Source: an uncultured Actinomycetota bacterium (lineage in GTDB: Bacteria; Actinomycetota; Thermoleophilia; RBG-16-64-13). Taken from it: a DNA stretch of 64,000 nucleotides. The translations under genes were made by a program, and so were the position numbers. A model generated the notes under the pieces. The model saw nothing but the letters and a program-made list of their open reading frames with translations, did no database searches and had not been told where the DNA came from. Where the stretch lies: the NCBI GenBank assembly GCA_963796315.1, contig CAWCLH010000020.1, positions 1,121,879-1,185,878 of the forward strand, given 5' to 3'. This document shows positions 49,352-51,236 of the stretch, piece after piece (position 1 is the first letter of the stretch; every line of letters begins with the position of its first letter).

Positions 49352-49546
49352 GTGAAGGTCGCGCAGGTCGATTTCGAGAAGTGTCAGGCGTGTAGGGAAT
49401 GTCCGCCCAAGAAGGCCTGCCGCACCAAGGCACTCATCAAGATGGGGCCTGACGAGGAAGCCATCGTCAAACCGTCGGACTGCATGGGCTGCGGCGACTG
49501 CGTCGAACCTTGCCCCTACGGCGCCGTCAGCATCAAGGAGAGCTAG
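49352..49546 (+). CDS. Small 4Fe-4S ferredoxin
   Basis: 64 aa with CQACRECPPKKAC and CMGCGDCVEPCP. Confidence 0.8.
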   Translation: MKVAQVDFEKCQACRECPPKKACRTKALIKMGPDEEAIVKPSDCMGCGDCVEPCPYGAVSIKES

Positions 49547-51236
49547 ACCCTCCCTTCGCCGGCGATCGTCGGGACACGCCGTCGCGCCGTCGGGAAGTGT
49601 CGCGGCCCGCGGCGGACGCGAGGATCAACTCCAGCAGTCTGGATTCGTCCACGCGGCCCGGTTCCGCCGGGACTCCATCCACCACCACCAGCGGCACCTG
49701 GCCGACCTGATAGCGCTGCACCAGCTCCGGGAAATCAGACGCCGCCACCATGTCGACGGTGATCTTCGGCGAGGCCAAAGAGAACTGGTGAGCCAAGCGC
49801 ACCACCCCGGGGCAGACCGGGCAGGTGGACGTGGTCAGCACTTCCAGGCGCACCGGCACCCGAAGCCGCGACAACGCGCTGCGAGTCTCGTCGGACACCT
49901 CGCCGGGCGCCTCGGCAGACAGATCGACCAAAGCGTCGACCAGGGGGCCGAACTCATAGCCTTCCGGCACTCCGAAGAAGCGGAGGCGAGCAGCCTCACC
50001 CGGACGCGCCGCCAACGTGGCCGGGATGCGCTCGACCCCGAGCTCCTCCGCGAGCTCCTTCTCCGTCAGCATGTCGTGCACGTCCAGCTCCAGCTTGGCC
50101 GACAACGAGGCGAGGTCCTCGACCAGCTGCCGAGCCTCCCGGCACGCTTCCGTCGGGAGCGAGCGTCCGGTGCCGGCCAGCTGGGTCAGATGGACGAGGC
50201 GCACCGGTCCCGCCAGCTTCTCCTCGAAGAGCGCGCTGAGCTCCTTCTTGTCCTCATCGGCCAACGCCTGCGGTGCGGCCCGACCGCCGGACGCAGCCGT
50301 TCGCTCGGCAGTACCGGAAGAAGCCGTCCCCCGGACGGCCGGCCTCAACAGCTGGAGCGCCTGGAACGCGGCGATCTGGCCCTGCCCCACCGCCTTGGCG
50401 ATCTGGTAGGGCTCGCCCGTGGCATCGCCGGCGGCCAGCACGCCGGGCACCGAGGTCTGCAGGGAGGCGTCGACGACGATATGTCCGCCCTCCACCTCCA
50501 AGCCCTCCAGCAGGTCGTGAGGGGCGACGCTGCGCCGGTAGACGAAGACTCCGTCGACGACCACCTCTTCGTCGGGATGGAGCACGTGGACCTTCCCGGA
50601 CTCGTCCCGGAAGAGCCGGCCGGGACGCTTCCGCGCCAGCACCCGCACGCCGGCCGGCAGGTGGTAGGGGCCGCCGTAGAGGGGAAGGTAGACCAGGGAT
50701 GAGGCGAAGTCCTGGGCCAACACCGTGGCCTCCTCCTCCCCTTCCTCCAAGTAGCTGATGAAGGCCAGGTCCTTTCCGGCGAACAGACGGCCGTCGCAGC
50801 TGACACAGTAGGCCACGCCCCGGCCGACCAGCTCGTCCTCACCCTCCAGGTCCGGCTCCCGATAGAGCCCGTTCGCCAGGATGACCACTTTGGCTTCGTA
50901 CATGTCCTTGTCGGTGAAGAGGACCAGTCGGTCGTCCTCCCGGTAGATCTTCGAGACCTTCTCCCGCAGCAGGGGCACGTTGAACCGCTCGAGATGCTCG
51001 ATGAAGGCGGACGCGAGCCCCTCCCCGCTCGTGAAAGTGAACCCGGGATAGTTGGGGACCTTGGGCGCCTTCCGCGTGTACGAGAACGGGCGCTGCCCGT
51101 CCATCACCACCACGCTCTTCTTCCGGTTGGCCAGATTGATGGCGGCGGAGATGCCGGCCGGCCCCGCACCGACCACCACCACCTCGTAGTGGGAGGACTT
51201 CTCGGCGGGATCGGCGCCGGTATTGGGATCGCTCAC
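49533..51236 (-). CDS. Thioredoxin-reductase-like flavoprotein fused to a PDO/glutaredoxin-like double thioredoxin-fold domain
   Basis: GTG 51236 follows [20 protein letters not shown], redox CVSC, AAGDATGEP. The second dinucleotide motif reads LAFISYLEEGEEEA instead of GGGxSAxEEA. C-terminal TSTCPVCPGVVRLAH...GQVPLVVVDG. Confidence 0.75.
   Translation of the reverse strand: MSDPNTGADPAEKSSHYEVVVVGAGPAGISAAINLANRKKSVVVMDGQRPFSYTRKAPKVPNYPGFTFTSGEGLASAFIEHLERFNVPLLREKVSKIYREDDRLVLFTDKDMYEAKVVILANGLYREPDLEGEDELVGRGVAYCVSCDGRLFAGKDLAFISYLEEGEEEATVLAQDFASSLVYLPLYGGPYHLPAGVRVLARKRPGRLFRDESGKVHVLHPDEEVVVDGVFVYRRSVAPHDLLEGLEVEGGHIVVDASLQTSVPGVLAAGDATGEPYQIAKAVGQGQIAAFQALQLLRPAVRGTASSGTAERTAASGGRAAPQALADEDKKELSALFEEKLAGPVRLVHLTQLAGTGRSLPTEACREARQLVEDLASLSAKLELDVHDMLTEKELAEELGVERIPATLAARPGEAARLRFFGVPEGYEFGPLVDALVDLSAEAPGEVSDETRSALSRLRVPVRLEVLTTSTCPVCPGVVRLAHQFSLASPKITVDMVAASDFPELVQRYQVGQVPLVVVDGVPAEPGRVDESRLLELILASAAGRDTSRRRDGVSRRSPAKGGSSSP

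Follow-up and report, generated by a model that had tools for sequence, protein, structure and literature searches.

A clostridial-type flavin thioredoxin reductase fused to a PDO-like double thioredoxin fold in Thermoleophilia: a predicted ferredoxin-driven disulfide reductase

In a 64,000-nucleotide stretch of DNA from an uncultured bacterium of the actinomycetotal class Thermoleophilia (assembly GCA_963796315.1, contig CAWCLH010000020.1; the whole stretch is hereafter termed the window), we describe a gene for a 567-aa protein in which a flavoprotein assignable to the flavin thioredoxin reductases that depend on ferredoxin (FFTRs) is fused to a C-terminal module resembling the double thioredoxin fold of the protein disulfide oxidoreductases (PDOs). 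Both modules belong to known families, both motifs for NAD(P)H binding are lost, the fusion is intact and conserved, and a small ferredoxin is associated with it in genomic position and through a common regulatory box. We consider it likely, from sequence comparisons and by analogy, that the fusion is a cytoplasmic disulfide reductase built from two known modules that works without pyridine nucleotides, with electrons passing from ferredoxin to the flavin adenine dinucleotide (FAD), and from there via a CVSC motif and a CPVC motif to a protein disulfide.

The fusion gene and its flavoprotein half

The gene and the elements of its product are as follows:
49533–51236, minus strand: gene for the 567-aa FFTR–PDO fusion protein (open reading frame translation, ribosome-binding site, homologs, AlphaFold2 model)
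50346–51194, minus strand: FFTR-type flavoprotein part, aa 15–297 (phmmer against the PDB, Foldseek, tree)
51153–51170, minus strand: GAGPAG, an FAD motif (located by script)
50796–50807, minus strand: redox-active CVSC, Cys144 and Cys147 (both Cys invariant in 23 sequences)
50727–50762, minus strand: FISYLEEGEEEA, the loop in place of the GxGxxA dinucleotide-binding motif (alignment)
50661–50687, minus strand: LPLYGGPYH, in place of the HRRxxxR 2'-phosphate site (alignment)
50262–50345, minus strand: flexible interdomain linker, aa 298–325 (predicted local distance difference test score, pLDDT, <50 at residues 300–319; length and sequence vary)
49602–50261, minus strand: PDO-type double thioredoxin fold, aa 326–545 (phmmer, NCBIfam, AlphaFold2)
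50142–50153, minus strand: decayed N-unit site TEAC (alignment to 1A8L; PfPDO has CQYC here)
49812–49823, minus strand: C-unit active site CPVC, Cys472 and Cys475 (both Cys invariant in 23 sequences)

A longer minus-strand frame, running from 51362 to 49533, is possible, but the N-terminal extension that it would add is not conserved; as the homologs begin at the position of the GTG codon at 51236, and GGGAGG lies just 5' of it, we place the gene at 49533–51236. A search of 5.8 billion proteins recovers about 30 full-length relatives (506–580 aa, 47–70% identity) from independent metagenomes and from metagenome-assembled or other genomes, the named ones being from Thermoleophilia. Twenty-two of these (49–71% identity) align end to end with the window protein, a single open frame spanning the linker of variable length in each, and it is to these 22 homologs plus the window protein that the counts of invariance over 23 sequences refer. 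The original prediction for this DNA, made from the sequence alone, had itself named the joining of two genes by a frameshift as a possible artefact; 22 intact homologs from independent sources exclude this. The approximately 28-residue linker is disordered in the AlphaFold2 model and variable in the alignment of the homologs, and a tail of about 20 aa at the C-terminus of the window protein is likewise not conserved.

The fusion family is narrow. In a hidden Markov model search of the whole library a single full-length representative (829 bits) is found at 50% clustering, and further full-length proteins of this domain order follow only at 238 bits or below and belong to another lineage. Four of the 151 genomes sampled from the class carry the fusion, all from the family of the window's genome and spread over three genera. 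A pattern scan of the genome contigs with the single fusion protein returned no relatives; the same scan with the fusion alignment returned mostly reductases of Clostridia and one Thermoleophilia locus only.

The flavoprotein half, which matches the Pfam Pyr_redox_2 domain, comprises an FAD domain, with GAGPAG and a second FAD motif, AAGDATG, also located by script, and a central disulfide domain that goes back to the NADPH domain. Its CVSC columns align with YCATCD of the Clostridium acetobutylicum FFTR (CaFFTR) and with WCATCDG of the canonical NADPH-dependent thioredoxin reductase (NTR) encoded in the same genome. PMC10880999 defines the FFTRs as enzymes that lack GxGxxA and HRRxxxR, and the columns of these two motifs read as follows:
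Window protein: GxGxxA columns, FISYLEEGEEEA; HRRxxxR columns, LPLYGGPYH
CaFFTR2 (6GNC): GxGxxA columns, IVGYTKEAEEEA; HRRxxxR columns, IPMYKDKVS
CaFFTR (6GNA): GxGxxA columns, IVGYNKEAESEA; HRRxxxR columns, VPRYKDEYQ
Canonical NTR of the same genome: GxGxxA columns, VVGGGDSAAQEA; HRRxxxR columns, IHRRDQLRA

The NTR of the same genome retains GGGDSAAQEA and HRRDQLR at the aligned columns, and the window protein matches the CaFFTRs there rather than this NTR, which points to a shared FFTR replacement signature beyond the mere loss of motifs. Within the replacement loop, E167 and E169 are invariant (23 sequences). The alignment of the two sets of columns thereby rules out a hidden NADPH site of recognizable type, and agrees with the original prediction in that the position of GGGxSAxEEA is replaced as in NADPH-independent FFTRs, whereas the FAD motifs and the redox-active CVSC are kept.

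Comparisons of sequence, phylogeny, and predicted fold converge on the same family. Among solved structures (phmmer against the PDB) the top matches are 6GNC (3.6e-62), which is the C. acetobutylicum FFTR2 (PMC8469568), 6GNA (2e-60), and 6GND, in the range 3.6e-62 to 5.4e-59 and with 214–204 bits over residues 15–297 with no large gaps, whereas AhpF and the NTRs follow only from 1e-32 or weaker (at most 116 bits) and the FFTRs of the cyanobacterial class (5J60 and 6XTF) are much weaker matches (1e-28). A maximum-likelihood tree (84 sequences) unites the fusion proteins with stand-alone homologs from Thermoleophilia (SH-aLRT 100) and joins this group to the clostridial FFTRs, 6GNC and 6GNA included (SH-aLRT 100), in a clade apart from the NTRs. 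An AlphaFold2 model of the fusion (mean pLDDT 85), which takes up the structure prediction that had been proposed as a check, superimposes in Foldseek on 6GNC and 6GNA with TMt 0.86–0.88 and a root-mean-square deviation (rmsd) of 2.8–2.9 Å, as against a TM of only ~0.5 and an rmsd >10 Å on NTRs, which indicates that the model has the open domain arrangement of the FFTRs. A conserved Trp or aromatic C-terminal tail is not found after the helix 276–297, where the disordered, non-conserved linker stands instead. In PMC8154056 such a C-terminal Trp tail is ascribed to the cyanobacterial class, and the clostridial class is described as using 2[4Fe-4S] ferredoxins as partners and as being without that tail; that paper and PMC10880999 describe the family of the CaFFTRs as pyridine-nucleotide-independent. 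On every sequence and structure criterion tested, the flavoprotein half is accordingly classified here as a member of the clostridial-class FFTR family.

The PDO-like half and the convergent ferredoxin

The C-terminal half aligns over its full length with the Pyrococcus PDO structures 1A8L (2.4e-31) and 1J08 (6e-30) and only weakly with the N-terminal domain of AhpF (5e-8), and is modeled as two thioredoxin-fold units, as PDOs have within about 225 aa, with pLDDT mostly >90. The CPVC of its C-unit aligns with CPYC of PfPDO (1A8L), so that the glutaredoxin-like or PDO domain with CPVC of the original prediction, and the fusion of a thioredoxin reductase (TrxR)-like flavoprotein to a PDO-type double fold as a whole, are borne out in motifs and domains alike. 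In the N-unit the first position of the corresponding motif is T in the window protein and in its two closest relatives (P0004 and P0005), and most of the other, more distant homologs keep CxxC there. PDOs are marked by CxxC in both units; the window protein has CPVC in the C-unit and TEAC in the N-unit, and is in this respect like the N-terminal domain of AhpF, whose second unit alone is redox-active. Together with a score of 168.7 bits against the NCBIfam PDO model TIGR02187, below its cut-off of 185, this leads us to class the half, by sequence, as PDO-like rather than as a PDO in the strict sense. A stand-alone PDO from another genome of the class (L110:7389–8066, genome G056) is 39% identical to the PDO part of the fusion; a stop occupies the first place of its C-unit motif (T-P-T-stop-P-Y-C-P), and it is probably a selenocysteine-containing PDO.

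The gene facing the fusion is the following:
49352–49546, plus strand: gene for a 64-aa ferredoxin with eight Cys, convergent with the fusion gene (Pfam, orthologs)

It starts with GTG, with GAGGAGG 5' of this codon, and its product matches the Pfam domains Fer4, Fer4_21, and Fer4_7. The eight cysteines, all conserved in 7 orthologs, are arranged as C-x2-C-x2-C-x5-C and C-x2-C-x2-C-x3-C-P, the first motif departing from the bacterial pattern of two CxxCxxCxxxCP motifs in 55–80 aa in its spacing and in being without the Pro. Since eight Cys in two motifs most likely denote a two-cluster rather than a single-cluster protein, this is probably a 2[4Fe-4S] ferredoxin. The original prediction of a convergent 64-aa ferredoxin gene thus holds as to the convergence and the overlap of exactly 14 nt (49533–49546), but its cluster count has to be corrected to a probable two. 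The overlap itself is due to the non-conserved C-terminal tail of the window fusion protein; in relatives the two genes overlap, stand apart, or have rhodanese genes in between, and the overlap is not conserved.

Adjacency is better conserved than overlap: an ortholog of the ferredoxin (57–75% identity) adjoins the fusion in 8 of 10 informative contexts, the window included, namely:
Contexts with a ferredoxin convergent to the fusion: L001, L002/L003, L004 (=L097/L112), L005, L096/L113, L120 (where the gene caller missed the ferredoxin gene), L121, and the window

In a further genome (G010) the fusion and the ferredoxin lie at the ends of two contigs. Neither the entry of a [NiFe]-hydrogenase operon upstream of the fusion nor that of a rhodanese gene, or two, between it and the ferredoxin has broken this adjacency. 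Within the family, ferredoxin orthologs of at least 56% identity are found only in the four sampled fusion-bearing genomes (co-occurrence in 4/4 versus 0 of ~30). The fusion-bearing genomes also share a distinctive CcmF, with 70–74% identity as against ~45% for other members of the family. Three lines, viz., synteny, co-occurrence at the level of the family, and a common conserved operator box, support the link between the ferredoxin and the fusion.

As to the inserted genes themselves, several relatives (L002, L004/L112, L005, L109, L113, and L121) have the [NiFe]-hydrogenase operon, comprised of three genes for the small subunit, the large subunit, and a cytochrome b, between the CcmH-like gene and the fusion, and in the same relatives the ferredoxin is followed, on its own strand, by one or two genes for rhodaneses. 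Neither the hydrogenase operon nor the rhodaneses are present in the window.

Operator-like boxes and the gene neighborhood

The boxes and further genes that bear on the setting of the fusion are these:
49271–49286, no strand assigned: CTACCCCCCGGGGTAT, a CsoR-operator-like box, an exact palindrome (TACCCC-CC-GGGGTA), 80 nt 5' of the ferredoxin start
52975–52990, no strand assigned: ATACCTGCGGGGGTAT, the box at the promoter of the trx operon, abutting the -10 of a promoter-like site
23433–23448: an ATACC-N6-GGTAT box upstream of the seleno-TlpA/ccdA operon
51417–52916, minus strand: upstream genes on the strand of the fusion, encoding a thioredoxin (WCGPC), a small open reading frame with an in-frame stop, a Zn-ribbon protein, and an exported CcmH-like protein
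52168–52497, minus strand: the small open reading frame between the trx and Zn-ribbon genes, with one internal stop after C-R-G-G-G (C-x4-stop)
22840–23340 and 32738–33388, minus strand: genes for exported TlpA/ResA-like thiol:disulfide oxidoreductases (W-stop-P-T-C)

An ATACC-N6-GGTAT box lies 5' of the ferredoxin ortholog in 7/7 related loci that have this gene (L001, L002, L004/L112, L005, L113, L120, and L121), and upstream of trx in every family locus examined, those without the fusion included; the boxes listed above thus recur at corresponding positions in related genomes. Strict boxes number 14 genome-wide, versus 0.67 expected from base composition, and their targets are mixed. The motif appears to resemble operators of CsoR regulators such as the copZA operator of Bacillus subtilis, and a gene of the CsoR family (~55385–55678) lies beside copZ at ~55.1–55.7 kb of the window. 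The only promoter-like site found for the trx operon (53018–52989, minus strand) is the one that the box abuts. Through the common box, the ferredoxin probably shares a regulon with the thioredoxin operon that leads into the fusion.

The genes of that operon match the Pfam domains Thioredoxin, Zn_ribbon_8, and CcmH, and their order is conserved in relatives, as are the C-terminal 53 aa of the small open reading frame in all related loci. In family genomes without the fusion, trx, the small open reading frame, the Zn-ribbon gene, and lgt are directly adjacent, which indicates that the CcmH-like gene, the fusion, the ferredoxin, and the TPR gene were inserted or deleted as one block. The spacing upstream of the fusion differs between loci: in L001 the CcmH-like and fusion genes overlap, in L120 the fusion directly follows the Zn-ribbon gene, and in the window 180 nt separate the fusion from the CcmH-like gene, an interval (51237–51416, minus strand) with a very stable predicted fold (-92 kcal/mol, z = -2.9). 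This fold, in which a GC-rich hairpin of 14 bp is not followed by a U tract, may act as a terminator, as an attenuator, or in RNA stability.

The window further holds a full System I cluster for cytochrome c maturation (Ccm), ccdA (22099–22824), and the two TlpA-like genes listed above, one of which lies directly upstream of ccdA. In both TlpA-like proteins an in-frame stop replaces the first active-site Cys, which implies selenocysteine at that position (W-U-P-T-C). A near-identical second copy of the seleno-TlpA/ccdA/zinc-ribbon genes, operator box included, is found on a 15.6-kb contig of the same assembly (C10, ~13600–15150), and could reflect either a real duplication or the binning of DNA from a variant strain. 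A phyletic argument, that Ccm genes track the fusion, was considered and fails, as CcmF is present in 102/151 of the sampled class genomes; what remains of a link to Ccm is the position within the cluster and the common box.

Proposed mechanism, alternatives, and comparison with known systems

The characterized FFTRs and AhpF serve as models for the path proposed here, in which the electron donor and the internal relay of the putative reductase are inferred, and its final substrate still more so. A reduced two-cluster ferredoxin, most likely the neighboring 64-aa protein, would reduce the FAD in two one-electron steps; upon a rotation of the domains the flavin would then reduce the Cys144–Cys147 disulfide, and the resulting dithiol would reduce the CPVC disulfide of the tethered C-unit of the PDO-like half, a transfer that might take place within one subunit or across a dimer, as for the N-terminal domain of AhpF in its own enzyme. 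The PDO dithiol would finally reduce a protein disulfide, for which the candidate acceptors are the co-encoded thioredoxin, CcdA with onward transfer to the exported seleno-TlpA and CcmH-like proteins of cytochrome c maturation, and a peroxiredoxin of the AhpC/TSA family. That the reductase feeds the adjacent thioredoxin/selenoprotein operon, as the original prediction had it, is thus one candidate role. Four matches to 2-oxoacid:ferredoxin oxidoreductases in the genome suggest that ferredoxin can be reduced in this organism. As the genome also encodes the separate canonical NTR (352 bits, above the cut-off), the fusion would represent an additional system and not a degenerate sole reductase. 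Another reductase fusion of the same genome (contig C11, ~203000–204164) joins a glutaredoxin (CPYC) to a TrxR-like reductase with GGGNSGLEAA; a frame shift between ~203449 and 203472 marks it as affected by a sequencing error or as a pseudogene.

The fusion might alternatively be a functional analog of AhpF, that is, a ferredoxin-powered reductase dedicated to a peroxiredoxin rather than one of general or cytochrome-c-related function, which we regard as possible though unlikely. AhpF is built of the same two modules, with a relay from the TrxR-like CxxC to a PDO-like domain, and the best NCBIfam matches of the fusion are the AhpF homolog model TIGR03143 (199 bits) and AhpF itself, TIGR03140 (194 bits); these scores, however, fall far under the respective cut-offs of 687 and 503 bits, and members of the TIGR03143 lineage mostly keep GxGxxA, one of them (L018) falling with the NTRs in the tree. 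PDO is known to reduce peroxiredoxins in Sulfolobus (PMC7278568), and the genome has 8 AhpC/TSA-family matches, 6/8 of them with one in-frame TGA. Yet neither the window nor the 10 related contexts have a peroxiredoxin gene close to the fusion, whose neighbors there are instead trx, the CcmH-like, TPR/CcmI-like, and lgt genes, and sometimes those for hydrogenase or rhodaneses, and this weakens a strictly AhpF-like role.

A different doubt concerns the donor: the chemistry might be as proposed, with the adjacent ferredoxin a matter of inherited synteny in a narrow clade and the physiological donor a different ferredoxin, a flavodoxin, or, as for the archaeal DFTR, F420H2. We judge this improbable, but several observations weigh for it and against the pairing that we prefer. 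The fusion-bearing genomes form one narrow clade, such that synteny and co-occurrence may reflect a single evolutionary event; the ferredoxin is missing beside the fusion in two contexts (L122, with P0031, and the contig of P0028); it is convergent rather than in an operon with the fusion, and in several relatives is co-oriented with the rhodaneses instead; and its near-neutral pI (isoelectric point; 5.0–8.7 among 7 orthologs) and unusual first-motif spacing are unlike those of classical clostridial ferredoxins. Regulation offers similar cautions: the box upstream of trx occurs also in family genomes that lack the fusion and is hence not specific to it, and the 180-nt gap with its strong hairpin leaves co-transcription of the fusion with trx in the window as a candidate only. 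Stand-alone FFTRs from another family (f3), 56–58% identical to the fusion, come from genomes without such a ferredoxin at E <= 1e-8 and have no ferredoxin, thioredoxin, or PDO in their neighborhood; conversely, similar 64-aa ferredoxins occur in a family (f6) that has no FFTR. In favor of the neighboring ferredoxin speak its adjacency, retained across the hydrogenase and rhodanese insertions, its strict co-presence with the fusion within the family, the operator box that it has in common with the trx operon, and the use of 2[4Fe-4S] ferredoxins by the closest characterized enzymes (PMC8154056). F420 biosynthesis is not evident in the window's genome (78% complete), whose two CofH-like matches are below the cut-off and lie ~1 kb apart on one contig; this pair appears rather to encode menaquinone enzymes of the futalosine pathway. 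A reading of the protein as an unusual NTR–PDO fusion, with NAD(P)H still used by the flavoprotein at a site of non-canonical type, is very hard to credit: the NADPH-domain-derived domain is fully retained and confidently folded in the AlphaFold2 model, and homologs are annotated 'thioredoxin reductase (NADPH)' in source databases, but these annotations are automatic, acidic or aromatic residues of the same kind as in the CaFFTRs stand in place of both defining motifs, and the fusion clusters with the CaFFTRs, not the NTRs, by sequence, tree, and fold.

Conceivably, though the odds are well against it, the ferredoxin and the fusion are a dedicated NADPH-free source of cytoplasmic reductant within a CsoR-type, probably copper-responsive, regulon, and drive the CcdA/seleno-TlpA/CcmH route of System I cytochrome c maturation. 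We know of no organism with a ferredoxin-powered input to Ccm, and this would, if true, be the first. The placement of the fusion in a cytochrome c maturation cluster and the box common to the trx and ccdA operons provide a testable lead on the cellular role of the fusion in general. To our knowledge, the FFTRs characterized so far are all stand-alone enzymes and come from clostridia or from cyanobacteria and their relatives; a clostridial-type FFTR is now seen in an uncultured lineage of Actinomycetota, where its presumptive acceptor is fused to it. A description of an FFTR–PDO fusion was not found in the full-text literature searched, a scope that leaves out most subscription journals and makes this an absence of evidence only; the fusion is apparently undescribed, with a mechanism predictable from known enzymes. 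With the candidate donor encoded next door, the single polypeptide should make a convenient model for the conversion of one-electron input from ferredoxin into the two-electron reduction of a disulfide, for the domain rotation in the course of the cycle, and for the purpose that an FFTR serves beside a canonical NTR.

Among known systems the nearest are the clostridial FFTRs, with ~38–40% identity across the flavoprotein part. The likeness extends to the replacement of GxGxxA and HRRxxxR in the same manner, the same position of the CxxC, the missing C-terminal Trp tail, the open domain arrangement in the model of the fusion, and a bacterial-type eight-Cys ferredoxin at hand. The clostridial enzymes, however, are stand-alone proteins of ~290 aa that reduce separate thioredoxins, whereas the window protein has a PDO-like module fused C-terminally; the host is a high-GC actinomycetotal bacterium, unlike the clostridial hosts; and the candidate ferredoxin, near-neutral and with C-x2-C-x2-C-x5-C as its first motif, is unlike that of the clostridial system.

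AhpF (1HYU and 4O5Q) likewise combines a TrxR-like flavoprotein with a PDO-like double fold in which the CxxC of only the second unit is active, has a flexible linker, and shows the relay to be expected of the fusion, from FAD through two successive CxxC motifs to the substrate. It differs in that the PDO-like domain comes first, NADH or NADPH is bound, and the gene lies beside ahpC; the PDO part of the fusion, moreover, is far closer to the archaeal and Aquifex PDOs (2e-31) than to the N-terminal domain of AhpF (5e-8). The 'AhpF homolog' proteins of TIGR03143, mainly from Clostridia, have the same domain order as the fusion, with a TrxR-like N-terminus and a glutaredoxin/PDO-like C-terminus, and a similar length (~530–560 aa), but most of those retrieved keep GxGxxA (e.g., GGGFAAAEEA). 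With no nucleotide site, scores far below the cut-offs, and a different flavoprotein lineage, the fusion is by sequence a member of neither AhpF nor TIGR03143. Three TIGR03143-like proteins of a Clostridia-type lineage (P0214, P0228, and P0268) have degenerate GxGxxA loops (GSSAEA, GSSEEL, and GRDRFI), which suggests that the nucleotide site may have been lost more than once in fused reductases.

A relay from NTR through PDO to peroxiredoxin is known in Sulfolobus and Pyrococcus (PMC7278568). In Sulfolobus solfataricus and Pyrococcus horikoshii a low-molecular-weight TrxR reduces PDO, which in turn reduces peroxiredoxins or other proteins, and it is PfPDO and PhPDO that the PDO domain of the fusion matches over its full length; there, the components are separate proteins and the reductase uses NADPH, whereas the window protein unites them in one chain, with a reductase of ferredoxin type. 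Finally, the NTRC of plastids and cyanobacteria and the TrxR-Trx of Mycobacterium leprae resemble the fusion in having a TrxR with a C-terminally fused acceptor, but are NADPH-dependent and have a single thioredoxin domain in place of the PDO double fold. The fusion can accordingly be viewed as the predicted ferredoxin-type counterpart of AhpF and NTRC.

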